Shown: piece by piece, positions 5,405-54,247 of the stretch
Numbering within the stretch: the first letter of the stretch is position 1
Layout of the letters: each line of letters starts with the position of its first letter
From: Phoronis australis
Taxonomy: Eukaryota > Animalia > Phoronida
NCBI GenBank assembly: GCA_002633005.1
Contig: NMRA01000161.1
Location: 600,959 to 664,958 of the forward strand
DNA: 64,000 nucleotides
Direction of reading: 5' to 3'
Notes under the pieces: model-generated
What the model saw: only the letters and a program-made list of their open reading frames with translations
What the model was told of the DNA's origin: nothing
Database searches by the model: none
Program-made: the position numbers and the translations under genes

Positions 5405-5586
5405 TCCCTTGGAAATGGGAATTCCGCAAACTTCCGGTTTTTCCTTGTTTTGGATGGCCAGTAGCTAGTCGATAGCTTTATTGTGGCGGAATAGGTCTCT
5501 CCTAGTCGGTAAACCAGTTCTTAAACAGAGCTCTGTTTAAGAGCTGAGTATTAACTACCCATCAGGTAGCTGGTAGTTATCTAGCC
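5405..5586 (+). promoter_or_regulatory. MITD1 proximal promoter / 5' UTR
   Basis: ETS-type ACTTCCGG (~5430) and a shift from AT-rich to CpG-containing sequence about 150 bp upstream of the ATG. Confidence 0.4.
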
Positions 5587-30500: not shown

Positions 30501-33500
30501 TATTTGTGTTTCTGTTGCTATCTGCAACCAAGACAACGATCAACAATGAAACAAAGTCAAGCCCTGTCTACCCAATTGCCGTACACAGCCATCATATACA
30601 ACTAACCGGAATGTACAGGTGCTCCAACACAAATTTTTCAAGCTCAAGTCCTATACGAGTTGTTATTTGATAGCAACGTTTGATTTCACTCCAGTTTTTG
30701 TTCTTCAAGCCAGAAACACACTGCAATTGCCGCCTACAACTTCCTACGTGGCAACTGGAAGGTGTAGACAGAGTTTTACACATGTCTGGTGAAGATAAGG
30801 TTTTTAACAAAAAAAATGCATATGATTCTCATTTTTTAGTGTTTCACTTTGTAAAATCGAATCGCTGATAATTGATTTTTCCTTATTGAAAAATAACATC
30901 TCAATCTTGCTACGCTAACCTTGAGCCGCTCTCGGAGCGTGTCACGCTCCGTTGTCATTCTCCGCAGGTCAGCAATGGCGTCGTCCCGTTCATTCTCCAC
31001 ACGTCTAAGTACTGCCTGCGCAGCTAGCGAGACCTTGGGGGACTTTGGAGAACGCAGCACCTGGTGGCGAGTTCGCTGCAACTCGTCTTTAGTCTAAGTT
31101 TTAGGAAACCAGACAAAGATTACGCATTTGTTAGTTTTAACAATCAAAGCTACCATAAACCCGCATAAACAAACTTTTTGATTTATAAAACAACTCAGAT
31201 CATTTCTTACTCCAGCTGTCTCAGGGAAGAAGCAATTTCTGGCCTTGGAAAGAGCTGATAGTTTGTTATTCGGAAACCCTGAGACAGGGGGGTGGGCGAT
31301 CGCCAAAGTAGTACAGTGGGCGCTTCAACCGAAGATTAGCAAAATGTCAGGGATGGGCAATTATCCGGGCAGGGGTGTTAACCCGCAAGTTTACGGTACT
31401 TCCAACTATGCTGGGTGCATTAATAATTAAATGCGAAATGACAAGCCAACTTATTGAGATTGATTCAAGCAATAACAAACCGTCACTTTTTCCATAGTTA
31501 TGAAATCATCTGTAATTTGAGCAAGGAACAACTCAAGATGGGTTTTATAATGACACTGTGATCTAAATAAAAATGTAATAAAAATGTACGGGGGTTTAAA
31601 AAAGCGTGACTCAGTATTTTAACCAAGCAACCAGCCAATGACAAATCCGAAAATTGGAACTTATTCATTTTTTTCCAATTTTTGTGCAAAATTGATCAGA
31701 GATTACCATATCAAGAAATAAAGGACATTGCGATCAACTCAAAATGTGACAATTGGAGGCCACTAGTCAGACAAAAAGCAAAAACTGTCATACATAAAAA
31801 CAATCATCGGTGCACTATTATGTAATTTTCACATTATACTATGAAGACACGTTGCAAAAACTGACTTCTGCGGTCAGATTCACTGCAAAGAGCAACAGAT
31901 AGAGGGAATTTTCACGCACACAAGGTTTTGAAATTTGGAACGACAAGACCTCAGAAAAAAGCTTTTCGCACCTGCAACAGCTGGAAGACAAAACAAGCAC
32001 AATCGAGAAAAAGAAGACTACAGAAGCTATATTTGGTAAGCACTACATAGCAACCGAGTAAAGCAAGCTCTAGTGAATGCATAACGATTAAAATCCTAAC
32101 GAAGCAACAATGTAAGCACTAAAAGCCAGGGAAGCAAAAGGATGTTCCGCTGCGATAACAAAACGAGCACTACAAGCGAGGGTGGAAGCGTTTAGCTATC
32201 ATCTAGAAGCCAAGTAACAACTAATTCAGGCTGGAACATTCGGAGCAAAGGGGACAAAGCAGAACGCGATGCAATTTGGGGGAAAGTGACACTGGTCTTA
32301 AGCTAAGACGAACGTAATCAAGAAATCAAAAAAGAAACCATTGCTAGCCAATGGGGAACTCACATCTTCGTACAGCAGGTTCAGTTTGTCTCGCTCAGAC
32401 GTGAGAACCTTCACGTTAGTCTGTATCTAAGAAGAGAATGAAAATGTTACGCAATCTGGAAATAGTCCTGATTAGCAGATGAGTGTTAAATGTCATTAGT
32501 GAATAAACCTCAACCAAACCTGAAAACTACCTTACGGGACAAAATCGAAATTATTAACAGTGAAATGAGGCCAGACAGTAAAATATAATGTTAAAACTAC
32601 GGAGAGTAAAATGGTGGCTTAATATTACTATAGTGATGACTAAATTGTAACAAGGTTTGGCTCTAATAAATTAATGCAGCTAAGTAACTCACTTAGCTAG
32701 ACATCTCTGTAAGTTCTCGTCAAATAAATGAAATCATTGCATGCAGCGAATGTGAAAACGCTAATTAATAACAAAATAGAATGCAGATTGTGGCAACGGT
32801 TGAAGTGTGCACGTAAGAATTGTGATTGTACAGACGGTGACTATAAGAAGAAAACAATGAATCATCATCAACGCTTTGACACCTAGCTGGATGTTAGGCA
32901 GTGAAACTCACGTGATTAATCATCTTAGCCGCCACATGACCGCAAATGAGTTATTGCATTAGAAAGCTGCACAGGTTATTGAAAATCTATACTGACATTA
33001 ATTTGTTGTTAGCAAAATGAAAAGTACGGTACATGTTAACCTGAAAATTAACAATTGCAACATTCTATGAGAATGACAAAACTGAGCTTCTTGTAATTTT
33101 CCATGACAAACATCGGATTTAAGTAACCGTCTTTATTAGGGCCATGCTGGATTACACAGCGGTAGAACTCTCCTTTGTCACGGAGTTAAGAAAGCGTGTG
33201 ACCTCGTTTTGTAAATCAGTCATATTTCCGTGTCTCTCACTGATGTCAGGAAGGCGAAAAATTTCAAATCACACATTCATGGGTATTTGTCCAGTTTATC
33301 AAACTTTCTCACGTCAGAGTTCTAGCCCACAACACAGTAGTAATACTTTGTTGGCATTGGAAGGACGAATAGAGTAATGAAACTGAGAAAAACAAATAAC
33401 ATGCCAACTTCAATGGAACGAAAACGAGGCAGCAAATGTGCCTGACGACATTGTGGGTAAATACCGTGTAGTCGCTGTGTAACCCAGGATGGCCCTATTC

Positions 33501-36500
33501 TGGAGTTTTAGCACTGAGAACACTGTATCCCAAATCCCGATGCCATGGAGTAGTACAGCATTAAAGTGACAAATTCATTCTTACACATAGTGCAAAAAAC
33601 CGAAAGAGTAAGTGGCCAATAATTCCAGTAGTTTTTATTATCACTTTATAATCTGGCACCCGTTTCATTAGTACTCAGACATGTCTTCAGGAGGCGCACA
33701 TTGCCACTGCACCATGGACACCTACCTCAGCCATGTGTCGTTCAAACTTGTCCAACATCGTCTGAAGTTCGTCACGCTCACGAATCACCCTCATCAGCTC
33801 CGTCTCGTCGTTGGTACTCTGAAAAAACACACAAGACTCAAATCAGGACAATTGAAGATTGCCTACTAATTACATTGACAAAACACTACATTATGGGTAG
33901 GTGACATAGACCCATGAAGGACACGTCGTCTTTCCAGTTGCTCTTTGTAAACCTGAATTGAATAACTGATCAAGCACAATGTATGCGGCCATGTCAAGGA
34001 TTTTGAGAAACATCTGAACTTGTCACAAGCCAATTTCACCAGAACTCAGTGCAGTTTTAGAATGCACACTTGCTCGTTTTCTTGCTCTGGGCTTGGTAAA
34101 CATCCACATCAGTTGAGTTATTCCTAGGAAACCAGATTGGATCACGATAGCACGCGTACTTAATAAGAAATAATATTTAGACAGGAGCATCATAATGGAA
34201 CGTGTGAAATTCTACGGTAATTATAACCTAAGTTAATGACCATTAATAAGTTAGTGATGCAGAATTGAAAAATGAAATTGTTTATCTTCCATTAAATATT
34301 AATCAAATATTTGACAAATTTTTCATCTAGAAGAGTTCAGAAAGGTTCATAAATATGAATGAAATACAGCAGACTGCTACGATCCCCCTCGTCGTAGGCA
34401 AAGCAACTACCAGGCCGTAGGCACGGGAGAAATGAGCCATCATCGTTTATCAACGGCAGTAGAAATCAGGTGGCGCTGGTTTTCAACATGGCGTGACGCA
34501 CCTAGAGTATTTAATTTATGGTAATCCCATGTCACAGTCACCCCTCCCCCTCCACAACAAACACGCAAACAAAGTCCAAGGTGGCGGTGACCTGGCAGGA
34601 ATGAATGGTCCACAACTGCGAGGGGAAGCCAGCATCTCACACTTTCTGCAATATTTGTCCCCCCAATTCAAACTTACCCTATCCCTGGTGGGCGGTGACC
34701 TAGTGGGACTGGATGGTCTACTGCTGCGTAGAGAGCGCAGGATCTCGTACTCCCTCTTGTAGTGGTCTCTCTCCTCCTCCAACACACGGATGATTGTCTC
34801 AAAGTGAGCATCAGTCTGCAACAAGTAGTAAGAATGCAAAATAACAAGAAATGTTAACTTGTCTCCCCTTTGGCAGATATCTACTTGAATGCCATCGCAA
34901 AGAATGCCTTGTGACCCTGACCTAGGTCCTGTGAAGCTCAAAATATTACTTTTGTCTGCCTTGCTACCGCATCTCAGGAGATAAAATAGACTTAAGTTGC
35001 TATAAGTTACAAATTAAAATTGATGTACTTTGAAAGCATGGACTTCTTTGTGTCTTTCTGATGTCAACCCACACATTTTACCAAAAGATCATTCTGAGGA
35101 GACCTTGGACGAATGAAGTACTCAACCAAACTTGAACTCACGACATGAAACACGTGAAAATCTACATAATGTTTGCCACATGAGTAAAGAATGTGCTTTT
35201 GACATCCTTGACAATCTTGTCTTACCCTTTCTTTCTTGCTCGGCATTAACACTGGACTACTGATTGAGCGAGTGGGGCTGCGAATCCGTGTGGGGCTGCG
35301 GCCCCGTGAGGGGCTCAGTGAGCGTGAGGGGCCATTCTGCAGCATGCGCTGCAGTGTCTCAACCTCGCCCTTCCAGTAGTCGCGCTCTTCCTCCACCCCC
35401 TTCAGGAAGGCCCCAAGGCGGTTAGGTGACTTCCCTCGAGTCTTGCGCGCTGGTGCCTTCTTCTGCTTCAGTCTCTCTATCTCCATGACAAGCTCGCGTT
35501 CTGTTAAAACAGGAAGCAAATGGGGGCGTGACATTTTAACCGAGAGGTGAAACCTGACATCGCCCTCGAAAAAGAAATAGAATGGGTATTGATCATTTAA
35601 TGGATGACAAAAACAGATATCAGTCCTTAAAGCAGGGCTTGGAATGACCAATGACAAAAAACGCGGAAACTTTTACGGCCCAAATCTTGCCCGATAACCA
35701 GCCTTGAAATGGTCAGTGTGAACCTTTCCCCGACAAAAATCGGGAGGACTAAAAAAAAAAAAATAGGTTACCACCATCTGTAGCATACATCTGCGTCCTT
35801 TCAGCTCGCCCGTCCACTCCCAATCCTCCCAATCCACACATTTTGGCTGCAGAGTGGTAGTATTTCTCGCCGCGCTTAACAATAACACGAGACGCCATTG
35901 AAAATCTCCCACCACGCTGTCCCAGATGCCCCGGCAATGTTGACAATTTACGTTCCTCCGAAACATAAAGAGCAACTTCCGCTTTTCGAGGTGAACGTCG
36001 TCTGCAACGCCGCGGTAAGAAAGGAATTTGCCACGGAAATTTTATATCAAATCCGATTTTTTTACGCAGAAATATTATAACAAAAGCGGAAAGCACATTT
36101 GAAAAAAGCGGAAATCTGCATTTCCGCGGAAAATTCCAAGCCCTGCTAAAGACAAGAAGCAAAGAGGTAGTGACAGACATTGCCTTCTCTCACCAGCAGG
36201 TGACTGCACATGTTTTATAATACTTTATTATGAAGGATAATATTAACATAAACTACTGTGGAATAATTTTGAAAAACTAAAAAATGACTGGCCATTTGTT
36301 GTCTGCACTGGTGGGATGATTTCCCAAAATCCATTGTGCATTGAACGTCTCGCTCAATCCATAAAAATGTTAATGCAAATAGCACTAACGCGTTGTTGAC
36401 CACCTTGTGACACTCAATGTGAGTAGTAAAAACTCCTTATTGATGTAAACAGAAGTAAACTCAGAACTTGACCGAGTCACACAAACAGCAGCTTGATCTC

Positions 36501-39500
36501 TTGAAGATACTTTATGAACGGAAATTTTCAAAAAAAATCATTTTACAAAACTGAAATACTTTGTCAGAGCACGAATGAAAATGCACAGCTATTGGAAATG
36601 AGAGGCGTCCGAAAATGGCATTAAAAATGGATAGCAGTATTAACATTCGAAAAGCATGACAGCAAGTCAACAATACCAGACTTCAAATGAATAATTTACA
36701 ATAAATACAATAACAAAATCACTTAAACACAATAATTATAATTATCAAATACGTGGCCGGACAACTCACCATTCGCTGTCAGCTTTGTAACCCGACTGCT
36801 CAGTCGTCGCTTATCTTCCTGTATTCTATCCACCAGTTCCTGTAGTCTCTGGTAATCCGCCTCTCTGGCATTCAGCCGCGATTTCAATGAAATGTTGTCG
36901 TCCATCAGCCTAGCACGGTCCTGTAAAGAGAATGTAGCCTCAAGTTAGGAGACAGATCTGGGGAGACTCACCATTCCATGACATCCTCTCGGTTGAAAGA
37001 ACTTGGACCGGTGTAGTGCTATGTAAGCCAAGTCAATATCGTAAACCTCAAACTGGTCAGAGTAAATCAAGACAGCGGCAGTGTATCTTTCCGCTGAAGC
37101 TATCAGTCTATTCTTCTACCACATTATTAGGAAACAACAGGTTCCACCTCAAAACATGAAACAAAATCAATGGTTTTCAAAGATGGCTCTGCATGGTGCT
37201 TGAACAACTGAAATTCTTTTCACTGACAATGACAGTGCCGGATACGAATGAGTTTTGCAATGTAGCAAAGTGTTTGAGTGGATGTAGCATATTAACAGCA
37301 GATCGAAAATAAACAACCCGGCAAACAAAGCAATCTAAACGTTAACAGTTACAACGATTAAAAAGAAAAAAATAGTGCAGGTGGTCGCATCGGCGTGAGC
37401 AGACCACTCAGCCAGGCACAATGCACCAGACACCTGAAACCATTATTAAATGTACACAAATAACACATCAAATTAAGAGTGAGCTGAGGGGCTAGTGACA
37501 TGACTTAATGATCTAGCAGTGGCATCTAGTGGGATTTTAACAAACGACTTTGAGAACAGGAGGCAGACACTCAACCCACTAGGTCACACTGCCTCCAACA
37601 TTTGCCCAGAACATTAAACTTGAGAAACCACAATATACAGAGTGTTCAAACGAATGTAATGCTAGTCAGACGAGCATTGCAAAAACATGAGGATACATGT
37701 GAACTACAATCAGTAGAACTAAAAGGCATATTCTATGAACTCACCCCTTTCATTTGAACATTTTCAAGGTCAAGACCTTCAAGTTCACCCCGTGACCTCT
37801 CCAATTCAAACTGTAATTGAAAACACACTGACTGTCATTATGAAGATCATATATTATTTTCACAAGGCTATATTCTCAAACAAAGCAGTTTTCAGACATA
37901 AAAGCAGCCGTATAAACTGAAACATTTAAAAATTAGAACTATAATCTGGATGTTAAAATTAGTTTCACATTTCATGTGTTATTAAGACCTTGATGATAAA
38001 GCAATTAATATTGAAAGAGCTGTCAAGTTTCACACATAAAAGGAAAACATAACACACTTCAGAACAGACTTTAATGTTTTTCTAAAGTTTCCAGATCACA
38101 CAAATTACAATCACAATGAAGTGCCCAAGAGAATATTTACATTTCTATCAAAAAGAATTAAAATAGATCAGAATGAACTGAACATGTCATTGATTTTCTC
38201 AAATGTAAAAAAAAAAAAAATCCATCACATTGATTTTCTCAAATGTAAAAAAAAATAAATCCATCACAGAGTTCGGGTTATCATAATGGATGCATACGAT
38301 ACCGTAATTCTTCACAGTGGAGCAGTTAAAAACCAAAATTGTTCACTTTTATATAAATCCTTGAAAACTGGTGTACAGTTCAAAGCTGTTGTGCTTATCC
38401 GAGTAAGGCAAGGTACCCATCGCTGTCACCATGGTAACTATCCCAATGGGTGAATAGAATATTACAGTTATTCCTCACCTAAGTCACACTTTTTCAATCT
38501 TTCAAGGCCAACTAATAACCAAATTTTCTCAGTCTCTTGCCTTGTTGTAGTGGTACAGTATTAACTATGCTAACAAGGCAAAACTGACCAACTGTTTAAT
38601 CATTATTCTGATCCTTGACCAATCTAATGTCACCATTTGTAACAGTTAGAAGCCATAAATCATGCTACTAATGAACAAGACTTTCCTAATGATCATTTGT
38701 CTTGGGTTCCCTGTCAAAATAAAATCCCATGTTCCACCATATCATGTGCTAAATACCATAACTGCTTGGGTTTTTCAATTGAGGGATTCAAAGATCAGGC
38801 AGCGGCAGTTAAGTCGAGCGAAACAGAACACACGCATCTAGAAAGTGATAATACAGAAAATCAAGGGGCAGACGTCAACCGGAAAACATAAACTAGACGA
38901 AAAAAGTGTAAAGTTTCCTCAAACTCGAACAAAAATAATTGCCAAAACCGTCATTTTTAAATGCTCACTGTATTGCCAAAATTGTTCAAAACATCATCAT
39001 CTGTTTGTTGATGACAGCAATACCAACATAAAGCTTTCAAATACTTCAGTAAAACTGCCTTCTTTCTTACTCTAGTTGAAAAGATTTTTACAGATCCGCC
39101 ACTCCTAATTAAAAGAAACTTTACCATAGTGTCCTGAACCCACAATTTTAAGCAATCACGTACCCGTGTCTCGTTGAGCTCACGGTCGGCCTGTCTCTTG
39201 ACACTCTCCTTCTCAAACTGCAGGTCACGTGCTTCTCGGTCGACATCCTTTAACTCCTCCTCTAGCTCAGTTTTCTGAAAGTCGAGCTCTCGCGACACAC
39301 GCTTCGCGGACGTCTCCTCGGCCAACGACTGGGACAGCTGGCGCTCCAACTCCCTGTTTCTCTGCTGGAGATAGTCCACCTAGGAAGAGGTAAAGGAGAC
39401 AGCTAGAGTTGTGTTCACAACCAGTACTGGGCACTGGTTGACCTATGTTAAAAGGGCATTTCCCCTAATTTAGAGCCTAAAACGGTCCAAATATCATGAA

Positions 39501-42500
39501 AGAGGCTGATTAACTTGTAAACGTGACCTCTAAATTTTCCTTGCCATGACAGCCATTGGTTTCTACCACTGAAGTAAACAGACACATCACCAGTGATTTA
39601 TGTAAGGCGTTGACATTTCAACAGGCTTTTTTGCTAGCCGATGTCTTGAACGGTCCATTTGGAATTGGAAATCATTTTAATACACAAGTAGTCTGCTTTT
39701 CTAACTCTCACGACATGAGATCTGTAGCTACAACAAAGGAGTAATGCCAAAAACTTGTTGTATAAAGACCACTGCATGTGAGGAGTAGCACTCGAATGTA
39801 TTGTAAAAGAATAAATAAAGATGCTTAGTAAAATTTTTAATAGGATTCAGATTGCAATGGGGAAAGGCAGGTTCATTGTTCAAAACTTCATCGCTGTCAT
39901 GAACCACAACGGTGTGAAGCAGAACATTCCCAGCTCACTGACTGATGCATTTTGTGGAAACATTTTGTTAATGTCATTTTCAAACGATCGACTGTTGGGT
40001 CAAAACTTTCTTCGACAGCCTAAAATATTGGAAACCAAAATGTACGTTCACCGCACCCCTTTACCCCCATACAAAGGTGATCCATTAGCCTCCTATACTT
40101 CCACCACCTCATGGTTAGAACTTAATATTTACAAGCATTGTTTTTGCTTCTAAGTTGAAACGAAACGGCTTCTTACAGGAATAGAACAAACTTACAACAA
40201 GTTGTCGTCCATGTTTCAAAGTTTACATACAATATTGGCAAAATCACACACAGTTTTGCCCCTTACACCCTGTTCACACCAAAGCAGTGATAACTTTTAA
40301 AACCGATTTACAGGATATAACTCTCTGTCTGAACAATTTACAACCAGTTTGAAAAGTTGTAACCATAACGTGGTTACAGCCCTCTATGAGGGTGGTTAAG
40401 CAAGAGGTTATAACCGTAGTAACTTGGTGTAAACATGGCAGTTGTAAAAGTTAAAACTCAGTAGGTGGCGTTGATGTCAGATCCCACTGGAAATAATGGT
40501 GCACTGTGTGAATGGTAACAATTACATAACACTTAAAAACTACTGAAAGAGTAACTCATGGGTTTTGTTGGTCAGAAAACGGAACACAGCTTTAGTTTGT
40601 ATAGCATTCTAACACTGTGCCTGTGCAGGGATTCTATTCCTCGCAACGTGAACAAAAGGTCGTGACATTTACATTGTAATGCATCATGTTGTCACATTAG
40701 TGATTACCTGGATGTTCAGGTGTGAGATAAGCTGTTCATTACTCTTGTTACGCGACTCCAAGGTCACCACGTCAGTAGGACGACCCCCTTGTAACATGTT
40801 GCCAAGGCGATCAATCTCATCATCTCTTGTATCCAACTGCAAAGTGAAAGAAGGCCACTCTAATTGTAACAGCAATAAATGTTACAATATAACTGTGTTA
40901 CAACACACCTGGCTTCTAATGTCTGTTCAAGTACATCACTCCACTGAACAAGTTCCAAAACCAAGCCAACAGTACAGTAAAAGTTCAGCAACTTTGTACA
41001 AAAATAATTGCCAAATTGCCATGGTATATAGAACTTGAACATTGTAAAGCATTAATTTGATGCTACGTTACTTTCATGAAAAGGAGACAACATTGTGTCC
41101 TATATTGGTGAGCTTGTACAGTGCTACACACAAGTTGGTTCGCTTACAGCAAACTTTGGTTGCAACAAACGTTTTAGACAAGTGCTAGGAGAGTGCAGTA
41201 TAACACAGTTCAACTGTTCCATTATCATCACTACTATAACTACTGACTGGAAACTAGATTCTTCATCGTTACGCCACTTTTTCACAGATGTGGGTCCGAC
41301 ACCTCTTAAAAACAACTCGGCTCTCTCCTAAAGTGCGATGATCCAGCAGTGTTAACAAACAGATGCTGGTCTTGGAACAATCGGACTTTTATCGACAACA
41401 AGCTATCACCGTATATAAAGACATTTTCATTTTATAAGTAAACCATTCTCATCAAAGACAACCAATTTTTTGGATCCTGGAAATTCAACCTTGAAAGTGT
41501 TCAGTGACACAAAAGCTACAGCAACACTCCTGTATATTTTAGAACATCCATTCTCCTTTTGCCCACATGGGGTGATCATTGTGGACTGAACCCATATACA
41601 CAGCATAAAACTATCACACCATTACTAAATTTTAGGAAGCAGAGAGGAACATTAATGTTATGTAGGACCTGATCACATTAGCACACAGAGGTTTGGTGAT
41701 GACCGGGGGGGGGGGGGGATTTATTGGATAACCCTCTCTCTCTACTCAACTGCATGGACTCTAGTAGGATAACAAAATTCAAAGCAGAAACCCTGGGACT
41801 GTCGCCCCCTTGATCCCCCCTTCTGCACATTGCTGCCTTATCGACAACTCTGTGTATTCAGACACGTATATTAAGCTATTGACTTAAACAAACTCAGTAA
41901 AAGGATATATTTTCTAAAAACTGCCACTAATCAGGTTATGTGACCAGGACTTTTTAGTAAAATTTAACAAAAAAAACAACGTTACATTGATGGCAAAACA
42001 ACGGTACAAATAACGACAAAACTTCATTTAATATAAATGTTTAAAATGATATCTCGACAATGCTGTTAGAGTTTTCTAAACTATCATTTCGTTTTTGTTT
42101 AATGCAACATTTGACTTAATTATGAAAATCATAAAGTCTTATGGTTCGATTACTTTAATAGCGTATCATGCACAAGTGGAACATTCAGAAAACAATTCCC
42201 TCTAAGAGTTTTGGAGAGAACAGTGCAGAAACCATAGTATCTGAAAGTTTCACATGCATCTCAACAGCCATTTGTGAGATATGATGTTCAGCAGTTAGCC
42301 AACACTCTAGGGTTATACATGACCTTAACCAACAGAGAGGTTACAAAGTAAGTTTAAATAGGACCCTAGAAAAATATTCGAATTTAGCAAACTTTCCACA
42401 AATTATGTTTAATTGTACGCACTGTTCTCCAAAACACCGTTAGGAATTGTTTTTAAAATGATCCACTTTTTCACGAGGGGCTATAAAAATGGAACAAAAT

Positions 42501-45500
42501 CGACAAGCTTTCTACTTACAGAAAATGTGTATTTTTACCGAGTTAAAATCTATCTTGGTACGTCGCTAAATACATAGAACGCAAATACCGGTACCTACAC
42601 ATATACAATATGTACTGTTACTAGTAGTGGCGGTATCTTTTCATTACCAGCACCGGTAAGTTATAGGAACAAATATTTCTAGCAATGACACCATGAACAA
42701 TCAGTTACGTACAACAAAATGTACAATTTCTTGAGACACTCGATACATGTATTTGATAACAGATTCATGGCTTTAAAATAAATGTTCTCTGTGTAAATAT
42801 TCTGAATAAACTTTTGAATTGATGTATTTATGAATGTGTAGGCAATGCCTATGATGTACATTAAATGATATTGTTATTGAAGTTGACTAGTTCAGACAAA
42901 CATTGAGATAACAGACCATTAATGAAACCATAACCTGATATCATCTGGATAGGATGTTCACACATTCACCAACTCCTCCGGACAAATGCAAGGATACTAG
43001 ACCTCAAGTTACAACAAATTAATATTAGGTACTCAGAGAATACAAAGGTAGAGTATGTAGATGTATTGTATTCCTGCAGAGAAGACATCCTTGGCACAAG
43101 ACAATTTGAATACCAAGATCATTTTGGCACAAATACCTATCTAAAAACAGTAGAATGCAGACCTCAATATTTTGAAATGGTAGTTTTATCTGGGTCAATT
43201 TATTCCGAGTCATATTCTGTTTTCTGAACGACTTTCTAAATGTCGGCATTGCAACAGTAAGCAGTATCATTCACACAGTCTTGAGAAAATTCAACTCGAA
43301 AATTCACCATACCTACCAAACGAACTCAAAATACTATTGTTTTTTTTCAAACATTCTCAATGAATGCCATAGGTGCATGTAAAGAATCATAAAATGATAT
43401 CTACCATACCCATCGAAAGAGATAAAAAACAGTATTTTTCCTTTTCTCATATTTTTAATTCATGTCACAACAGTATTTTTCCTTTTCTAATATTTCTAAT
43501 TCATGTCACAAGTGCATATAAAGAATATCAAAAATATAAGGGTAGAAACGACCTTTTTTCCTTCAGTCTTTTCCCAAAACTACACCCATACGTGGGCATG
43601 TTACAGCAGATACGCAGGGGTCTCAATATTATCACATCTAGTCAAAAATACTACAAAGCAAACACTGGGACTATGGACAATGCTCTTTATCTGAATACTC
43701 AAACATCCCAAAGGACATGTGTATTTCCTCTCAAGAACTAGTCGCCTGTTTGACAACTTTTTCACATTAAGTTCAGGCAATAAAATGATCAAGTTATGAA
43801 CAGGTGCACGGATAAAGCCAAAGATCAATAGGGCCAGTAAAGGGCACTCCCAGAGAAAGGCGAAGGTACAAAAAGACTACAGATCCAGATCAACAGATGT
43901 GCACATACCAGCCATACATATTTAATGCCAGTATTGACGTTTGTAACATAACCAACATAATAATAACACCTGGGTTATTGATACTACTCTTACTACAACA
44001 TACACATGTGCTTTGGTAATTGGTAATGATTTGGTAATTGACTGAACTTCGTAGAATTGTCTTTGCTAAAGGAATTCAACTTGGCAAGTATACCTTAGGG
44101 TGAACTAGTCAAGATATGGATATTGATATTACGGTACAAGCAACATTTCCGCACAAAGATCCAAAAAGATTTACCTGGCCGCTATCAAATTTTAGACAAA
44201 GATAATGGCCAAAATTGAATTGATCATTTTTCATTTTTCAAAGACTTGTAATTGTAACATTGTGAATGTCTATAATGTCTGAACACATTGTATGATGGCA
44301 GCTTGAGCAAAGAACGCCAAAAATCATGTGTTTTGTTTCCAAAATCTTTATTTACATCTTCACTTTTAAATGCTACCCACAACTTTTATTTATGAGCAAA
44401 AAAAAAAATGTTTGGTACGATTTCGATTAAATTCAGTTACGAAGCAAAGTGAATAAATTTTCAGATCTACGCAACATCAGTCTCAGACGATGAACTGCTG
44501 TAGGGTTCTAAAGCGAATACCTTTCTTCGCGTTGAAATGTGCTTAATGATCTTTTGCTTAAACCACGCGCCGAATTAGTTATTCGTTACGTCCAATCAAA
44601 GTGGAGTTTACATTCAGTGCGTAATGACATCATCATTTACATAGTCACTTGACAACAATCTGCAACATTCTTCAAAAGTTCCTTTCCGCCCATGTAGAAA
44701 GTCTTCCGCCATTTAGAGATTTGAGAGCACAGGCGTGTTTGAGCTATATGAACTGATTAAAACTATGGGTTGATTAAGCAATAGTGCTTATTGATTATGT
44801 AAAATTGCACGTTCATTAAACAAAAAGTGTGTATTGAATAAGAACAGAACAATGATCATTTAAGAACTAATTCAGCGCGATGATAAGCAAAATGTACGCA
44901 TAGATCAAGCAAAATCTATGAGTTGATTGAGCAAAACTACGTATTGATTAAGTAAAACTACGAGTTGTTTAAGCACATTTCAACGCGAAAAAAGGTATTC
45001 GTTTAAGAACCCTTTGGCGCTTCATACCAGACAGCTGAACGTAATGTCCAAAATGAGCTTCTGCAATCGTATTCATCAATTTCAAATGTCACAAACTGCT
45101 TGGCCCAGTTGATAGAAACTCCCATATTAAAGCAAAGAAACTACCACTACCTGTTTTTCACACCAGGGGGAACCATATACATCTTGTGTAGAATTTTGTG
45201 AAGAATAGTGATGCTTTCATAATTTTGCCCGCATAAGTTAAACACCCTGGTGTGACAACTGCATGGTATGTCATTGACTGAATATAAATTGGCAACTAAA
45301 AACCTGGAAATAAGCAGTGGCCATCAGGGTGTTCCCTAAAGCACACTGACATCATATATCACCCTTCCAAGAATAGACAATCACCCTGAGGCTATATCAC
45401 CAGTGCTAACAGTATGAACACAACCTAAGTAAAGCAATACACTTGACTTAAAGTCATTGGCAAGCACATGGCAGCTTGTTACCAGAGTGGAGGACTGAAT

Positions 45501-48500
45501 ACCAGACTAGGGTTCATCACCACTGACACACTTATCAAGTAACAGTAAAACATGCACAGAGCCTGGCACAATGTTCCTGGCTCATTTAATATGAATTTGA
45601 TCAGTGGTCTTGGCAGACTTTAATGTTACAGTGAATAGGGGATCACATAACCCTATTGAAAGTTCACACCAGATATAGTACACAGAAGTGAGGCCTATTA
45701 TGGCCCTATGATAACAAGTGCAGACCTTTAACCGGCTTTTGGTTGGTGAGAGGTGTCGCCTCCTGGGACTTCGTGAACTCCTCAATGACATTCTGCCGAG
45801 CAACTGTTGGACTCACACAATCCCCTGCATAGCAGCGCCGGCACACAGCTGGCCAAGTTTTGGTCAACTACACTCCAGAATTTAAAATTTAACAGTTACT
45901 GATAAGGCCAAATAGGCCAAAGGTACTGAGCCAACATCAAAGGGGTCACAGCATACCATTATACAGACTTTATCAATAAATAGCCTTATTCAAAGCACAA
46001 GCACACTAGCCAAGCTCCGCCCATCTGGGACAGTTTATCCAATTGCCTATTGGAGCTGGGGAAGCAAAATCTATATAAGGAAGCTGACTGTTGACATAAG
46101 GCCTGGGGGGATGGCGTACCTAACAACTGATCTTGGTTTGCACAATAAGCATTACATAGAAGATAAAAATGTTAAGCACTGACCCATTGTGTAGCTCACG
46201 TCTGATTAAGCAGACATAAAAAATGCAATGAATGTTCACAACAAGTGGAAATCAGCAGGACTTCATTATTCTCTAACAGGTAATAGCCAGTAGTGCACAA
46301 GAATGTTGTAATTGGTACTTCCATCCCAGGGAGCAGACAGCATCAGTGTGAACACCCCTGCAGTGGAAGAGTGGACCGGGCTAATCCTCAATTATTAAGC
46401 ACAATGTTTGTATTTCAATAGGGTAAAGAAGGTATTAAGCTAAGAAAAGTTTATTACCAGTATGTTTAGAGTAAAAGCAGGGCTTGTGAAAAAGCCTGTC
46501 TATTAAAGAAAACAACAGGGGTACTTGATGTGAAACCTGTCATTTTTAGTGCAACATTGTGCTTGATAGAGCCACACTCAAATGCTCCAGAGAAACTTAC
46601 AACTAGGACGGATATGTACACGCAAGTTCCAATGTCTGTGACATAAACTGTTTTCAGTGATAACATAGACACCTTCTCCCCCTATGGCAAAATAATTACC
46701 AGTAAATTTCAAAGATATAAAATCAATGATTCATGAACAACTATGATTTACACAACCTGACATATTTTTTTACACCTTAGTACACTATACTGATATAATA
46801 ACATGAATCGAGATGTCACAAATTACTTTTNATTTCACATATATCAAAAACACATTGTTTGATTGGACTGAGTTTTCGAAATTTTAAGCAGCTAACGCAC
46901 TTCTGAACCAAGTCAAACAAATAAATAACAAGCCTCCATCAGCTTATCAAATTTCTTAGAATGTCAAAATAATTTTTAAATTAAAATACCTATTTGTACA
47001 GCAACAGACCAAAATAATAAGAACAGATCCCAACTGATGCATAGCACCATGGGTAATTTACAACGTCTGAGTCAGTGACATTGTGGTATTTCTGGATGTG
47101 TCTGTTAACTGCTATTTTTCATTCTCATGGTACCAAAGGACATCGGGAATAACGATAACGTTGTACAACTCGCTATGAGGAACAAAATACGAGACAGGTT
47201 TTTGGGCTAATCAGGGCTAACATTAACCATCTGACAAAAATATGGAAGTGTGCAAGGAAGATGATTTTGTCTCACTTTTGTGATGTCCACATTACGAGTT
47301 TCTCCTAGAAAACATTGTCAATAGGTTTACCGCTAGTAGAACTAAGTGTGGACTACTATTTGCCCTGGAGCAACTTGACACGTGTGACAACTTATCCCAT
47401 CTTTCTATGGTACAGTACATGCCAAAAAATAATCATCTTTCTATGGTACAGTACATGCCAAAAAATAATCAGATAAAATGACCCCGAATTCGCCATCATG
47501 ATGGCTGACCACAAGTGTGACTACCTTTCATAAGGCAGGACTCTGAATGACCAAAGACAAAAAAGAACATTTTCCAGGTGATATATATCGTTCCACAAAT
47601 AAATAGGCTCGTGCAACAGAAATATTTTTTGTGTTGTAAAATTTAACTGAAATAAACATTTTTGCATGAATAAAGTCAAAACAATGATAAAAAGAGACGA
47701 AAAAAGGAAGATGGAAATCAAAAAAGAGGAAATCCTCTTAACAGAGGAAAATTTCAAGCCCTGATTTTAAGGTGGGGTTATAAGTTGGACTTTCATGCCA
47801 GAAGTGGAATTCACCATCAGAGTAGCTAAAATATGATGCCTCGTGGCGGGTCATGACCCCTTGTGATAGGTTATAGCCCATCACGAGGGGCAACAGTATT
47901 TTATCTGATTACTTTTTGGCGTATACCGCAGAACAACTTGTTCTAGGGCAAGTTGCCCCAGCAATATGTTGTAATGCGGTAGCAAACCTGCTAATAAAGG
48001 CAAGTAAAATACCAGTTGAGTACTTCCATAGTTACATATATTGAACATACCAGCGCCTTCATTTTCGTGTTCTATTCCCCCCCATGTTAACATAGTTATA
48101 ATTAACAAACATTTTTCAAAGATCATCATGAGCAATGAGATAATTTGCTCCGTGTCAAAATGTGTCTACGGTATGATGTGGATGGTTAGCTGACTGGCGG
48201 CGAGTTACTCTAGGACAAGTTATCCCAGGGTAATTCATAGTGAGGACATGACCATTGTTTTTTAAAACTTCCTTCATCTACATTTGGCCACTATGACTGA
48301 ACAATTAGCAGGTGACACCAAAATTTGTTTGAAGCAGTGGATTAGAAACAAGCAAGCACAAAGTTTCACGTTATCTCAATAGATGTGTTCCCTGATATTT
48401 TGAAATCCCGCAAATATTTCAGGAAAAAATATAACGGGATTAATTCCACAAACAGTTCTGTCCTACAGGATTCCTGTTGACTGCCGGAACAACGCCGGTA

Positions 48501-51500
48501 TTTTTGTCGCTCCAACTAGTGGGCATTGGAAGAGGAAAAAAGACAATTCATTGGTCAACAACAGTGGTTTTATATCACGGATATGATTGGAATGTTAATG
48601 GAGCAAACAAACGGTGGGAAGTCCAGAGATTTTGTTTAAGCGTTGGCCATTGAACTAGGTCCGAATCATTTTCCGAATGTCTGATTGATTTTACATTAGT
48701 CCAGATATTTGCCTAATTCATATCTGGGAATGGTGGCATATTAATGTCATATTCTAGATACAACACAGATGTGTTAATAACCAGTGGCTGGGAAATGCCA
48801 GTTTGAAATAAGTCCCAAAACCCCAATCAGCGGTAGGCAAACCATTCAACAAAATTTGTACAAACTGTATTTTTGCATACATACGTTTTTTCTTTGATAT
48901 GAAAAACGAGTAAGAATTTGGAGTGTAAACTCCGTTTTAAAGTCATTGAATAAATAATTTATGGTTTTATGTCAATGACACCATTGTTTCCACCTAACTG
49001 TACTCTTCTATTAGATGGATGTATACACCAGAGCAACCACTGGGGTCACCAATCCTGTTGGGAACAACGTGTGTTTGATCTGAATTTTTGGAAAATTTGG
49101 ACTTCGGGTTACGGAATCCTGTACAAACCCCTCCTCCATTAGCAAATTTTGTCTGGCTGATTTACAAAATTTCCTGACAGATTCTGACACTTTAGGACCT
49201 AGAGAAAGTAGCAAAATCTCTAATAAATGAATAAAATTTACTATTACGAGACCAGGAAAATTTGGTGGAGTTCATAATACCGAGTAAATCGAGTCCCAAT
49301 GCAAAATTTTTGCTGCTTAAATTTTAGCGGAAGAAATAACTGGATTACTTCCACTAAATTTCACATGGCAACAGTTGCCTACATAACGACTGCGTCATCA
49401 AAAGCAGCGCTGTCTCGTAGAATTTTCAAACATCTGTTGCTCAGGCTGTAAAGTGGCATTTGCATTCTCTTAACTATGCTAAGTTAAAAGCACACATTAC
49501 TGATATTTTAACACAGACAATTTGTAAATGAGAAAATAACAAGGATAAAAAGATGATTTTAGCCCTCTCACTGGAATATATGTCATCCGCATCACGCAAT
49601 GTTTTCAGCTTGCGAGATAGACGGACTAACAAAGAAGACGACAGCATGGTTCAAACAAACATTAGGCAGCCCAATTTTAGGCCTTTTCAGGGCCTTTGTC
49701 TTACTAAATACATGTTTACAGCCTTACTGAGCGACAATGTTTAGTGTATGTGAAAAAGAACACATCAAAGACATAATGTGACCAAATACGTGTATGTAGT
49801 TGATTACAGCTACCCTTCTTTCGGAAGGTTATTCATTTGGCTAGTTCCCGATCCTAACTGTAAATGGTGTGAAAGAGTACCACTAGTGCCACAATGTACT
49901 ACAGAATTGTACCCCTTTGGATAAATGCCGAACTAGAAGTTATCTCCCCTTACTTCACGAATTATTAATTCGTTACGTTACCGAGTTAGGTGAAATACTG
50001 ACAAGAGTATTTCAAAACTGTTGATAACCAATTGCTGACTACCAATTTCACCCTGGTTCCATTAATCAGCTTCCAGGTTAGTTTCATCAAAAAAATTATA
50101 GTTTATGGGCAAACCCAAAGTACACACATTAAAATTTCACCATACTGGGATAAAACAAGCAGCCAAAAATTGCCATTTTAAAAATTTTAAGGGCTTCTAA
50201 TAAAGTTTAGAACATTCATATTACTTCAAAATGTTATCAGATGGCAATTAGTTATATTTATGGCAAAATATTAATTTGGTGCAAGAAATTTAAATTGCGC
50301 ATGTCAGTCATTACTGTGTTCTAAATTGACAGATCTTAAATTATATACCACAAACTCAAAACACAGCAAGCCAAGGTTAGGAAAGACACAACACCACTCA
50401 CGTTACACCAAGCTGAACACAGCGGCCATTTTGAAAAAAAAGTTAAGAAATAAGTTCTTCTGTAATTGACCTCATCACAGAAAATCCAAATGCACTTCTG
50501 TGATGGAACTACATTAGAGGCAAATGTAACCATATTACACATACATGGATGACATAGGTACATCACGGAGGTGGGGGAGGGTGGGTAGGGTTGAGTAATG
50601 TAAGTACTACAATCATCTGGCCAAGAATTCTAACACACAACATAATTATATGCATTTCAAAAGCAAAGCAAGAATTTTCCAAGGAACTGTATATCACCAT
50701 CATGTACTTTCACAAGGCCAACAACCTCAACCTCAAGGCAATTTCACACTCAGTTCTTCTGACTGATTTATTGTGCTACACAAGAGATTTAAAACTGAAA
50801 CTGAAAAGCAAAATTTGACGAGAACAAACTGTGCTCATTGAGAATTGCCCGCCAAAGCCCTCTCAATGAAAGGTAATAAGCATAAGCAGAATCTTAAAAA
50901 AATCAATTTTAACTTTTAACATTCGGGCAAATTTCACAGTTAAGACAGAACAATGTTACATCCATACCTGCTTTTATATGAGAGACAGTTGTCGCCATGT
51001 TAGTTGTCACGGCACGACTTGCTCCACTTTAGTTGCATTTACACAACATTAGATGGCAAACTGGATCAGCATTAGTCACTTACACTAAGACTGTCAGCGC
51101 ATGCTCGCATAAACAATAGCAAACGCCAGTGGATCACCCGTATATAAGTTATTGCGGAAGCATGTTGAAAGATGATCCTTTTCCGCCCTGCCAGTTATGC
51201 TCAGACGTGTAGTTTGAAACTGAAGCAACTGATCGAGAGCAACTCACTCTACCTATCAAACCATTGTCAAAAATTGACTGCCGTGGTGTCAGTTGCTCCA
51301 TGTCAGTCATGTCAAACTTGCACCCGACCAGCTATTCAGTGTTAGTTGCTCTGTGACAGCTGTCTTTCGTTTAAATGCAACTAAGGAGATTTTGAGACAG
51401 AAAACAGTAAGTGAACCGTTTACAGAACACATTTGACACAGTGCAAGTATATGCGTGAACGAAATTTGGCACGACACAACGCAATGCAATTTTGGCAAAA

Positions 51501-54247
51501 TGCTCTTGACCATCTAGTTCCATGTCAACAGCCTGCCTTAAGGTCATGTTAGATAATTTTGGATCATCATATCTCAAAAACGGCTCATCATATTCATGCT
51601 ACGCTTTACTCACTGTTCTCTATCACACTGTTACGAATTGCTTTTGAAATGTTCCACTTTTGCAGGAGATGCATCAAAAAAAGGAATTTTGAGAATTCTT
51701 AAAAAAATGAATTAAAATGAACGGATAATTTAGACTTGGTAATAGCATGTTTGAGATTTCCTCTTAGAAAAATTATCTATCGAAATATAGTAACGTTATT
51801 GATGCTGTTACTTTACTATGAATGGAATGCTTTCTAAATTATATAATACTCATTTATGCAACTCTCTTGGAGATCAGGGCAAAAGCATAATATTTGAAAC
51901 TTTCATTCGAATCTGAGCAACCATGTCTAAGAAACCACGTTTTGAAGATAGCCAAAATTTGGTCATTTTCCTAGGGTCCTACATTACCCTTAAAGGGCCA
52001 AAACTCAGCATAAGATTCACAACAGAAGCCCTCCAGCCAGCTTACCTGCTTCCTCAGATTGGTCAGTTTCTTGTCCAATATGTCTTTCTCCTGTTTGGCA
52101 GCGTCACATTCTGATGACAACTGAGCTATGCGCTTGTCAGCCACCTTCAGTAGGTCAGCGACAAATGGGTCAGTAGCCTGGCGCTGAATATTATCCGCTG
52201 ACAGGCTGGACTGCGGGTCAAGAGTGTTGTCGATGGTCATCCGCTGACGTCGAAAGGGCAGCGTTTTCTTTCTGCCACCTGTTGAGAAATTTAATATACT
52301 GATTATTACCAATAACATCCAGTGCGCTCTTTTAAAATTTCTAGGTTTGAAATTAGTCCAATTGAATTTCTGAGGTTCATGAATAAGTGACATTATTCAG
52401 AATACAGTTGAGAAATCACTGCACTACCACAGAATGATGCACAATGTTACACCAAATGTATTGAGAAATCCCTGCACTACCACAGAATGATGCACAATGT
52501 TACACCGAATGTATTGAGAAATCACTGCACTACCACGGAATGATGCACAATATTACACTGAATGTATTGAGAAAAATGGGATGAATCTGGCAAATATTTT
52601 TGTCAAACAAAAACACTAGAAGACAACTAAGCAGCAAAATGATAATTCTCATTACTTTAGTTTTATTTCTCACAACTCTTCAAAACTGTGTCCAAAGTGA
52701 TGCACTCAGAGGTCAATATGCGCCTTTTGAGCCCGGTTACATCAACAGATGCAAAAATTAAACCGAGGTCAAATGCTGAATGTGATATGTAAATAACACT
52801 GCAGTCTCTCAGCTACGCCTAGGACACTTACGCATTTTGAGACAATTTCGAGACAGTAAAATTTCATTTGTCTGCTATAATGTATCCTGAATTGGCAAGA
52901 CATTACCATATAGTGTAAACATGGTACATGGCAGTGTTCTCTGTGTAAACAGTCTGAATTTTGTCCTGACGAGATTGACTTTCTTGCGATGAGCTAGAAC
53001 TTTTCGGAAATTAGTCAGTGCTTGAGCGAATTAGAACATTTTGGACTTTTGGCATCAGATCCCTATTACCGATTCCACGACTTTACTAGCATGAACATGG
53101 ATTGTTGAACATGTTCATGGAACTTTTAATTCCTTTTTGTTTGAATTTTCCAAAATTGTGGAGAACACTGCACACAGATGTCTTGCAGTCAGCCAACGGC
53201 ACTAATGATCTAAGCCGGTACGCACCTGGTGTCTGCACAACTGCCTGGAAATTCTTCTCTTGCAGCTGCAGAATACGGTCAGCCTTTGACTTGGCCTCTC
53301 TCTCAGCAACGCGCACCTTGTGCACGTACTGATTGTTGAGGAAGCGCAGGTCGTTGTTTTCATGCTCCAACTTTCTAACAGTCGCCTTCAGATCTGGGAA
53401 AGAGAAAGTATACATACAGGTTGTACAAACAAGGCTTCTGGTTTTGATCGGAGATTTTGCTTCGAAAACAATGCGCCGACTCTCTACTTATTTGGCACAA
53501 AAATAATAGCTAAAATTGTTGTTTTCCATTTTTCAAAGGCCGATTGCTTTGCTAGAAATAATAGAAAAACGTTACCAAATATTATTTTACGATATCTAAC
53601 ATAGTACAAACCATGCCAGTAATAAACTAAATTTTGCTTTTTTTAATTTTCTGGAGAAATTTGACAAAATTTCACTTGTCAACCATATTGTGTGCTAAAT
53701 AAGTGAAAAATTACCGTACAAGTATTTTTATAAGCGTGACAAATTCAGGTGAAATCAACTCGGGTAATTTCGCAAAAACAATGACATATTACTTAAAAAT
53801 CAAGTTTTTGTAAAAAAAAAACAGCTGAAATCATTTTAGTTATCTGATTTTTTTTAGCCAATTTATTCATTTAAAATAGTAAGATCAAACTCTGATATCC
53901 AGCCATGCATCGTCACAAAGCAGAGCTCGTGTACCTGAAATCTGTTCATTGGTAGAGTCCTGCACCTGGATAAGCTTCCTGTGTAGTTCAGCGTTCTCTC
54001 TGGCAAGTCTAGCATTGTCATTCTTGTAAGGGTCCAACAGAGGTCCTGAGCTGCGAGATTCTTTAACATCCTTTTGGAATTGTAGCTTTGATCGTCGGAG
54101 ACTTTCTGTAGTGTGAATAAGGTCCCCGAACAGCTTTTCCACAAGAGGTAAACTTTCTATGGTGAGGGGTTGTCTGTAGCCTAACTGATCAAGTCGCCGG
54201 CGGAGACTTGCAAATTTCTCTTGTGCGGCCCCTGTCAAAGCGGCCAT
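18562..54247 (-). CDS. CEP135: Centrosomal protein 135 / Bld10 (CEP135/TSGA10 family), 24 coding exons, 1242 aa
   Basis: Minus-strand exons: 54247-53935, 53393-53226, 52278-52046, 40836-40708, 39379-39164, 37810-37745, 36920-36770, 35500-35226, 34815-34678, 33818-33726, 32426-32364, 31093-30920, 30521-30444, 29779-29628, 29365-29095, 28554-28499, 27649-27481, 26455-26345, 25941-25756, 25117-24908, 23481-23279, 22078-21974, 21652-21554, 18631-18562. All are GT-AG and phase-consistent; total 3729 nt. Family motifs: LRRRLDQLGYRQPLTIESLPLVEKLFGDLIHTTESLR, AVVQTPGGRKK.LPFRRQRM, LESRNKSNEQLISHLNIQVDYLQQ, ENRRLQDDL, ERFERERTIQELRRHGL. The last exon is the least certain. Confidence 0.95.
19900..20160. 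repeat. Diverged ~86-bp tandem repeat, 3 copies
   Basis: TTAGGA.GT.ATTCT.G.T.T.TGTC...TTGA.T...AGTGGGAG recurs at ~19905, ~19991 and ~20078. Confidence 0.8.
21208..21240 (-). CDS. Candidate 33-nt frame-preserving cassette exon near the CEP135 C-terminus (VSILISPKQPG)
   Basis: ttctaacacag|...|gtgagt. Phase 2-2 matches the host intron and there is no stop. Confidence 0.35.
22935..23278. repeat. Decayed ~80-bp tandem array derived from the 3' end of CEP135 exon 21
   Basis: About 4 diverged copies of TACATTTTACTCTCATTCAGCGTCAGCCTGTCTCTCAGCAGCTGTATCTCCGCCCCTTTCTC in the adjacent intron. Confidence 0.7.
23945..24153. mobile_element. Right-end fragment of the 46.5-47.8 kb element family
   Basis: CAGAAATATTTTTTGTGTTGTAAAATTTAACTGAAAT...GGAAATCCTCTTAA...CAAGCCC is shared with 47597-47763. 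Confidence 0.75.
26778..27251 (+). mobile_element. hAT-like MITE, copy 1
   Basis: TIR CAGGGCTTGGAAT...ATTCCATGCCTTG. Highly similar to 27791-28263 and 35633-36145. Confidence 0.85.
27791..28263 (+). mobile_element. hAT-like MITE, copy 2
   Basis: CAGGCTTGGAAT...ATTCCAAGCCTTG with the same internal sequence. Confidence 0.85.
31972..31980 (-). CDS. Candidate 9-nt microexon (LLQ) in CEP135 intron 11
   Basis: Minus strand reads tcttctttttctcgattgtgcttgttttgtcttccag|CTGTTGCAG|gtgcga. Phase 0-0 matches the host intron. Confidence 0.5.
35633..36145 (+). mobile_element. hAT-like MITE, copy 3
   Basis: Perfect 13-bp TIR CAGGGCTTGGAAT/ATTCCAAGCCCTG. Flanks CTTAAAG / CTAAAG may be a decayed target-site duplication. 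Confidence 0.85.
37400..37596 (-). mobile_element. Decayed tRNA-derived SINE
   Basis: The minus strand begins GGAGGCAGTGTGACCTAGTGGG (A-box-like) and continues to GTTAAAATCCC (B-box-like) at tRNA spacing. No cloverleaf. The 3' extent is approximate. Confidence 0.5.
38188..38268. repeat. ~40-bp tandem duplication
   Basis: CATTGATTTTCTCAAATGT(A)nTCCATCA occurs twice. Confidence 0.9.
38425..38438. promoter_or_regulatory. Consensus RFX X-box in CEP135 intron 5
   Basis: GTCACCATGGTAAC fully matches GTNRCCATGGYAAC. Confidence 0.45.
40265..40517. mobile_element. Small PIF/Harbinger-like MITE
   Basis: Termini ACCCTGTTCACAC... / ...GTGTGAATGGT, with internal GGTTA/TAACC motifs. Confidence 0.45.
44490..45029. 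mobile_element. MITE with ~60-bp TIRs and internal ~22-bp repeats
   Basis: AGGGTTCTAAAGCGAATACCTTTCTTCGCGTTGAAATGTGCTTAA pairs with TTAAGCACATTTCAACGCGAAAAAAGGTATTCGTTTAAGAACCCT. Repeated TTGATTAAGCAAAACTA inside. Confidence 0.8.
45726..45791 (-). CDS. Candidate alternative first (or cassette) exon of CEP135: MSLRSSRSPRRRHLSPTKSRLK
   Basis: ATG at 45791, 22 codons, phase-0 donor AAG|gtctgc. RS/SP-rich, like the linker segments of exons 8 and 9. An in-frame ccaacag acceptor 12 nt upstream would allow a 78-nt cassette instead. Confidence 0.5.
46478..47763. mobile_element. Longer non-autonomous hAT-like element with the same TIR class
   Basis: CAGGGCTTG...CAAGCCCTG termini. The right end 47565-47763 matches 23945-24153. 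Contains a ~36-bp tandem duplication at ~47398-47470. Confidence 0.6.
50968..50998 (-). CDS. Candidate alternative first exon of CEP135: MATTVSHIKA + phase-1 donor
   Basis: aacATGG Kozak context, donor CAG|gtatgg, and an X-box-like GTTGTCACGGCACGAC at 51003-51018 just upstream. Confidence 0.35.
52408..52574. repeat. 53-bp tandem repeat, about 3 copies
   Basis: TTGAGAAATCACTGCACTACCACAGAATGATGCACAATGTTACACCAAATGTA at 52408, 52461 and 52514. Confidence 0.95.

Follow-up and report, generated by a model that had tools for sequence, protein, structure and literature searches.

Most accounts present TSGA10 as an offshoot of CEP135 that is confined to vertebrates and to the testis; its mutation results in headless-sperm infertility. 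It is also a general concept that alternative isoforms of one gene can subfunctionalise after the gene duplicates. For CEP135 itself, published work reports that residues 1-190 of the human protein bind microtubules (PMC4113102), and that the N-terminal part forms the A-link, within the A-C linker, the Tetrahymena protein having another microtubule contact at approximately residues 325-360 (PMC12506977). TSGA10 is placed at the base of motile cilia and at the sperm neck, where it is needed (PMC12796433, PMC3338421, PMC12901780). The vertebrate duplication that separates the two genes is stated in a preprint (bioRxiv 10.1101/2021.10.27.466145), and both the homology and the duplication are stated across PMC11393850, PMC3756917, PMC7336754 and other cited papers. 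In a search of openly available papers, we met with no account of an invertebrate CEP135 isoform shortened at its N-terminus; the main evolutionary study, Carvalho-Santos et al. 2010, may bear on this. Nor did we find, in the same sources, a paper applying isoform subfunctionalisation to CEP135 and TSGA10.

The window, by which we mean the whole stretch of 64,000 nucleotides of Phoronis australis DNA that was analyzed, contains a CEP135 gene (Table 1). All 23 traced exons have GT-AG ends, and exon 1 matches the solved N-terminal segments of Bld10/CEP135 in the PDB: 9qzc_q (E 9e-11), 5fcm_A (5e-9), and 7bji_A (6e-4). The protein has the N-terminal Bld10 domain and then a long coiled coil, as CEP135/Bld10 proteins do. 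A Pfam search with three homologs and exon 1 gave no CEP135/TSGA10 family above the cut-off. The window protein has its best match among the homologs, of 60% identity, in the CEP135 of Lingula, and a tree places it among the lophotrochozoans. The position of intron 3 corresponds to residue 233/234 in the CEP135 of amniotes and lampreys.

Three other features of the window can be described. The exon at 5548-5766 (+) and those downstream of it belong to an MIT-domain gene (Pfam PF04212), convergent with CEP135, which we take to be MITD1-like. At 7060-7455 (-) there is a 132-codon open stretch whose Cys/His pattern presumably resembles that of the zinc finger in LINE reverse transcriptases. At ~44520-45000 lies a CpG-rich, MITE-like element with terminal inverted repeats of ~30 nt, as judged by eye.

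Table 1. Features of the CEP135 locus, in window positions
Feature	Position	Strand	Remarks
CEP135 gene	21554..54247	(-)	23 coding exons, 1,219 stop-free codons traced; exon(s) at the 3' end lie beyond the trace
Coding exon 1	53935..54247	(-)	conserved N-terminal Bld10/CEP135 domain; missing from the short form
Exon 2	53226..53393	(-)	missing from the short form
Exon 3	52046..52278	(-)	phase-0 end at residue 238; missing from the short form
Intron 3	40837..52045	(-)	11,209 nt
Candidate alternative first exon, coding part	45726..45791	(-)	ATG at 45791-45789; 22 codons, basic, Ser/Pro-rich
Candidate donor	45720..45728	(-)	phase 0, GT at 45725-45724; weak; no splicing use seen in RNA
Possible 5' untranslated part	45792..45894	(-)	one sense read pair, run X1; contains the cited X-box-like motif
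Exon 4	40708..40836	(-)	phase-0 acceptor; predicted partner of the candidate exon; short isoforms of at least 12 species join here
Exon 8	35226-35500	(-)	carries, with exon 9, an internal repeat
Exon 9	34678..34815	(-)	end rich in Ser/Pro/Arg, to which the human-type TSGA10 N-terminus truly corresponds
Exon 10	33726..33818	(-)	splice partner preferred in the sequence-only reading; not supported

A candidate first exon in intron 3

A first reading of this DNA, made from the letters alone (the sequence-only reading), had proposed that intron 3 hides a first exon, through which one invertebrate locus might make both CEP135 and a TSGA10-type short protein. The frame on which the proposal was built is confirmed: an ATG-led frame of 22 codons with a phase-0 donor, in the 11.2-kb intron that precedes exon 4. 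Its peptide is MSLRSSRSPRRRHLSPTKSRLK, which ends at 45726 and is followed by GT. The donor has a score of 0.4, level with the weakest of the gene's own 22 donors (0.3-7.8, leave-one-out), and falls within the top 6% of 796 intronic GTs. The candidate exon is single-copy within the window, and no other 120 nt of intron 3 has as much GC (69/120, the best elsewhere being 65/120). The possible 5' untranslated part has an upstream frame of 5 codons, with ATG at 45830 and stop at 45815-45813. As for what the exon would be joined to, its phase fits the acceptors of exon 4 (40836) and exon 10 (33818) alike; since 15 of the 22 internal acceptors are in phase 0, this points to neither.

Is the candidate beyond what chance would produce? 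We scored all 293 ATG..GT phase-0 frames of intron 3 against a reference set of 22 of the 34 unique short-form N-termini found in other animals, approximately one per taxon and with the non-basic ones included. The score was devised after the candidate was known; the reference N-termini are independent of it. The candidate ranks first of the 293 on composition (16.1, the next unrelated frame having 7.3), and it also ranks first on best alignment, on the mean of the top five alignments, and on composition combined with the donor. None of 600 introns simulated with an order-4 Markov model matches it on any of three scores, and no frame on the opposite strand of the intron reaches its scores. In 98 kb of other window DNA, none of 1,636 candidates reaches its combined score, and the one that equals its composition score does so with a poor donor. 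Four N-termini outside the training set score 5.2-11.6. The likeness is compositional: the best global score is 21, and the N-termini are not alignable beyond composition. These comparisons support a hidden first exon in intron 3.

The promoter marks that had been cited in favor of the exon are at the level of the background. The X-box (45804-45792) has 2-3 mismatches to the RFX consensus, and motifs with that many mismatches number some 2 to 14 per kb on each strand of the window, so that the cited one is within chance. The CpG patch (6 CpG in 150 nt) is matched by 9% of the intron windows, and the observed/expected ratio in the 300 nt upstream is 0.27. Two other X-box-like motifs flank the candidate, one at 45702-45715 (1 mismatch, 0.11 per kb per strand) and one at 46090-46103 (2 mismatches, ~1.3); they fit the RFX consensus better than the cited motif, and are not significant on their own.

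RNA data consisted of three raw-read runs and one contig set (X1-X4), chosen by species label, of which 18-19% of the X1-X3 reads were examined. Run X1 has four reads at the candidate, that is, two sense pairs, which align without loose ends. One pair spans ~45724/34 to 45884/94 unbroken according to the depth table, which is nearly the predicted exon plus a short leader; the other is found in plain intron at ~45214-45418, 300-500 nt downstream of the candidate. Because X1 has scattered intronic sense reads (such pairs occur about once per kb by a rough estimate), the pair over the candidate lends weak support at most, and it may be pre-mRNA. X2, X3, and X4 have no reads on the candidate exon, with X2 covering the downstream exons at an estimated 6-11x. 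No splice junction at 45726 is seen in X1-X4, where coverage is low (the four reads are below the threshold for calling joints). The RNA over 33600-53500 is swamped by repeats to the point that the 15 joints listed, of 112, are all derived from repeats, and the constitutive CEP135 junctions are invisible too!

The repeats at 35633-36145 and 47580-47763, both in CEP135 introns, draw hundreds of RNA reads, mostly in one orientation. Related repeat copies are found near 26780-27250 and 27800-28270, and the family of 35633-36145 has at least 3 copies in the CEP135 gene.

The same letters can be read as an internal exon. An AG at 45805-45804 would produce a stop-free, phase 0-0 cassette exon of 78 nt (45803-45726), in frame between exons 3 and 4 of the full-length CEP135. 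We find such a cassette exceedingly improbable, given that its acceptor would have a score of -7.5, where even the lowest of the 22 true acceptors has -3.9, that the lone X1 read pair continues through the AG, and that the 58-residue spacing across the exon 3/4 boundary is invariant in 136 of 137 proteins, with none longer.

The frame could be a chance low-complexity RS/SP stretch of an intron, in a species that makes no short form here. That no spliced read is seen and that the promoter motifs are within chance would both agree with this, as would a synonymous codon use that is weakly coding-like, in the top 10% of 2,938 open windows. But a chance frame would have to hold the first rank of 293, be unmatched in the 600 simulations, and coincide with the highest GC of the intron, in a group, the lophotrochozoans, in which the short form is widespread. 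We regard chance as a very unlikely explanation.

Short isoforms in other animals and the splice partner

To see what other animals do at this intron, we used the homologs collected with the Owenia homolog as the query (best 120 of 239 matches, 30 clusters opened). Among the 204 proteins of at least 600 residues from these best 120 of 239 matches, 122 are long, 40 have extra residues before the counterpart of exon 4, 17 begin inside exon 4, and 25 align too poorly at exon 4 to be classed. The 40 with extra residues include 5 that begin inside exon 3, 1 partial protein, and 34 with a unique Met-led N-terminus. When we consider the 181 invertebrate-type proteins from the same best 120 of 239 matches, 115 have the N-terminal domain, 63 begin in exon 3 or 4, and 3, apparently fragments, begin in exons 5, 8, or 9.

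In at least 12 species, including molluscs, a nemertean, echinoderms, amphioxus, tunicates, and lampreys, one locus has database models for the full CEP135 and for a short form. Six of these species are B. floridae, Lytechinus variegatus, Lethenteron, Clavelina, Crassostrea angulata, and Lineus, and six further ones are Patiria, Asterias, Lampetra, Pomacea, Ciona, and Mytilus californianus. The short forms of these 12 have a unique Met-led N-terminus, join at the exact exon 3/4 junction, and are identical to the long isoform downstream; in Patiria, 1,022 of 1,071 residues are identical between the two. Short and long forms often have adjacent RefSeq numbers, and many of the short ones are labelled "testis-specific gene 10 protein-like"; for invertebrate loci these RefSeq isoforms are automatic models. 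Many of the short-form N-termini are brief peptides with much R, K, and S, amphioxus and Lineus being exceptions. Automatic annotations of other species already imply the short isoform, which appears unstudied. Three short forms of 951-1,037 aa (P0071, P0082, P0088) are found on contigs of only ~3.55 kb, and therefore come from spliced transcripts. Two of the three have N-termini of 22-23 residues that start with MSL, include an SPK motif, and terminate in K, like the candidate.

These database models bear out the claim that a single invertebrate locus can give both CEP135 and a TSGA10-type short protein, and they support a junction to exon 4, which the sequence-only reading had given as its second choice. 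We hold, with considerable confidence, that the 22-codon frame is an alternative first exon of CEP135, joined to exon 4.

A different origin of the short form is suggested by the proteins that begin at a Met inside exon 4, a Met that exon 4 of the window gene keeps. The transcript might have a different first exon of intron 3, perhaps a non-coding one, and be translated from the exon-4 Met, with the 22-codon frame as a bystander, and the 17 such starts among the 204 proteins, the weak donor of the candidate, and the absence of a junction read would all be accommodated. However, a bystander is unlikely to rank first of 293 and to outdo 600 of 600 simulations, and several species (Lineus, Mytilus, Pomacea, Lytechinus pictus) have models for both the exon-4-Met form and a coding first exon. 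We consider the bystander improbable, and keep the coding first exon as the preferred reading.

Other database isoforms are short and begin at a Met inside exon 3 (P0052, P0079, P0167, P0189, P0204, from sea urchin, tunicate, abalone, mussel, and clam), and they are perhaps a third start or incomplete models. A search with exons 4/5 of Lingula added two more proteins, neither of them from a close relative that has a matching exon, and a single-exon protein search produced just 8 matches among 803 candidates.

The sequence-only reading had preferred a junction to exon 10, and had taken the 22-mer as homologous to the start of human TSGA10. That start peptide belongs elsewhere. The mammal-type TSGA10 starts (P0273, P0291, P0294) align to exon 9, whose Ser/Pro/Arg tract precedes exon 10; in P0291, for instance, the alignment starts with residue 4 against residue 549 of the window protein. 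In P0264, a mammal-type long TSGA10 of 860 residues, the start peptide is internal, at approximately residue 200 and behind the counterpart of the exon-9 repeat. It is internal also in P0265 and P0090, and likewise in the frog forms. Because the start peptide maps to exon 9, the likeness of the candidate to it is shared RS/SP content, and because the peptide is internal in longer TSGA10 forms, the start of human TSGA10 is an internal Met.

The candidate exon could still be spliced straight to exon 10, and be the ancestor of the human TSGA10 N-terminus, as the phases are compatible and the candidate has a local score of 29 against the mammal-type start. We deem this extremely unlikely, as the mammal-type start lies behind the repeat seen in exon 9, and not one of the 181 invertebrate proteins from the best 120 of 239 matches (30 clusters) begins at exon 10. 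The sequence-only reading thus reached a largely right conclusion, partly by way of a wrong clue.

Exons 8 and 9 form an internal repeat, in which a helix of EEERD type is followed by a Ser/Pro/Arg tract, and a single copy is apparently retained both in TSGA10 and in the CEP135 of jawed vertebrates. The hexapeptide SLRSSR is common to exon 9 (34715-34732) and to the candidate exon (45771-45788), with different codons, which may be due either to convergence of RS-rich sequence or to a copying event of great age.

Vertebrate duplication and a proposed origin of TSGA10

In quick trees with SH-aLRT support only, the CEP135, TSGA10, and lamprey groups each have support of 99-100 inside one vertebrate clade, with the invertebrate genes, including that of the window, outside. 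The window protein does not group with the TSGA10 clade of jawed vertebrates. A quick tree under a mixture model does not resolve the branching order of the three groups or the place of the lamprey gene among them.

The distribution of the N-terminal domain separates the two vertebrate genes. Among jawed vertebrates, 29 of 30 CEP135 proteins and 0 of 35 TSGA10 proteins have it, and among lampreys 8 of 11 proteins do, the short forms there being isoforms; a fish CEP135 model (P0276) is without it. In lampreys, long and short forms come from one locus. This is the pattern to expect if the duplicates divided two ancestral isoforms between them, and the suggestion that ancestral isoforms were partitioned after the duplication holds up.

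For the origin of TSGA10, its longer forms carry the information. The frog form aligns from the exon-4 region, and the lizard and mammal-type forms align to exons 4-5. Three amniote long TSGA10 forms begin with an MSS-Arg-rich peptide whose composition score is 10.5-15.3, versus 1.5-5.7 for 12 jawed-vertebrate CEP135 starts, and 8 of the 11 long TSGA10 starts score just -2.9 to 6.2 on the alternative-exon composition. We infer that the first exon of TSGA10 descends from the intron-3 exon of invertebrates; TSGA10 could also have lost exons 1-3 without use of an old intron promoter.

The split may have occurred more than once. The neogastropods Nucella and Babylonia (P0054, P0060) each have a second, short paralog, and the pair groups with support of 100 and has the same exon-4 Met start, which suggests an independent repeat of the split, if the gene models are complete. 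Lineage-specific CEP135 duplicates of which one copy is found only short occur also in rotifers (P0106, P0109, P0115, P0127) and in Macrostomum (P0107). The short duplicates of all these lineages are possible independent TSGA10-like genes.

On balance, we favor a bilaterian ancestor with one CEP135 gene and two proteins split at one intron, a long one that builds centrioles, and a short one specific to cilium or sperm in which a basic peptide replaces the microtubule-binding head. TSGA10 would be this second form turned into a gene, with the split repeated independently in neogastropods and perhaps in bdelloid rotifers and Macrostomum, and with human CEP135mini ending at the same intron.

The predicted short protein and its known relatives

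How would the locus work? A second CEP135 transcript would start at a putative internal promoter in intron 3, and the candidate exon is predicted to splice in frame to exon 4, for a product of ~1,000 residues or slightly more, without residues 1-238. Such a protein would lose the N-terminal segment for microtubule binding and for the A-C linker and would keep the long C-terminal coiled coil; it might also keep the contact equivalent to Tetrahymena residues 325-360. Going by TSGA10, it would be a scaffold of the basal body or the sperm neck instead of a builder of the centriole wall, probably made in ciliated cells or testis, and its basic Ser-Pro peptide may be a targeting tag under control of phosphorylation. 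After the vertebrate duplication, CEP135 would have kept the long form and TSGA10 the short one, and in mammals and some fish TSGA10 would then have lost more of its front, now starting at an internal Met of the exon-9 region.

All this suggests that the TSGA10 architecture is far older, as an unstudied isoform, and that one intron has long marked a boundary between modules of a core centriole protein. TSGA10-type function becomes testable in sea urchin, Ciona, or oyster by way of one small exon. Knock-downs, probes, and antibodies for invertebrate CEP135 may hit two different proteins. For TSGA10 itself, database models include forms of 860-1,070 aa, longer than the human reference of 698 aa.

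The closest relatives of the predicted isoform are the RefSeq models named "testis-specific gene 10 protein-like isoform Xn," such as XP_041463887.1 of Lytechinus, XP_052721802.1 of Crassostrea, XP_078481087.1 of Ciona, and XP_061408482.1 of Lethenteron. Like the predicted isoform, they have a short unique N-terminus at the exon 3/4 boundary, often basic and Ser-rich, and come from a locus that makes the full CEP135. Unlike these models, presumably based on transcripts, the window junction is a prediction.

The TSGA10 of jawed vertebrates has the same architecture as the predicted product, as it also misses the N-terminal Bld10 domain, and in amphibians and amniotes its long forms have their start in the exon-4/5 region, just as the product would begin at exon 4 without exons 1-3. 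It differs in being a separate gene, in the 698-aa human form that starts at the exon-9-equivalent Met, and in having a single acidic-basic repeat where exons 8-9 have two. The window gene is not an ortholog of TSGA10 alone: it is outside both vertebrate paralogs, and the same locus carries exons 1-3.

The human isoform CEP135mini (PMC6724517) is also an isoform of CEP135, with its break after residue 233, which matches the place of this intron in the CEP135 of amniotes and lampreys. It mirrors the window form: CEP135mini retains the first 233 residues and, through alternative polyadenylation, stops in the intron, while the window form would start there. Finally, as in the general concept of subfunctionalisation, one ancestral gene with two isoforms would have given two descendant genes with one isoform each.
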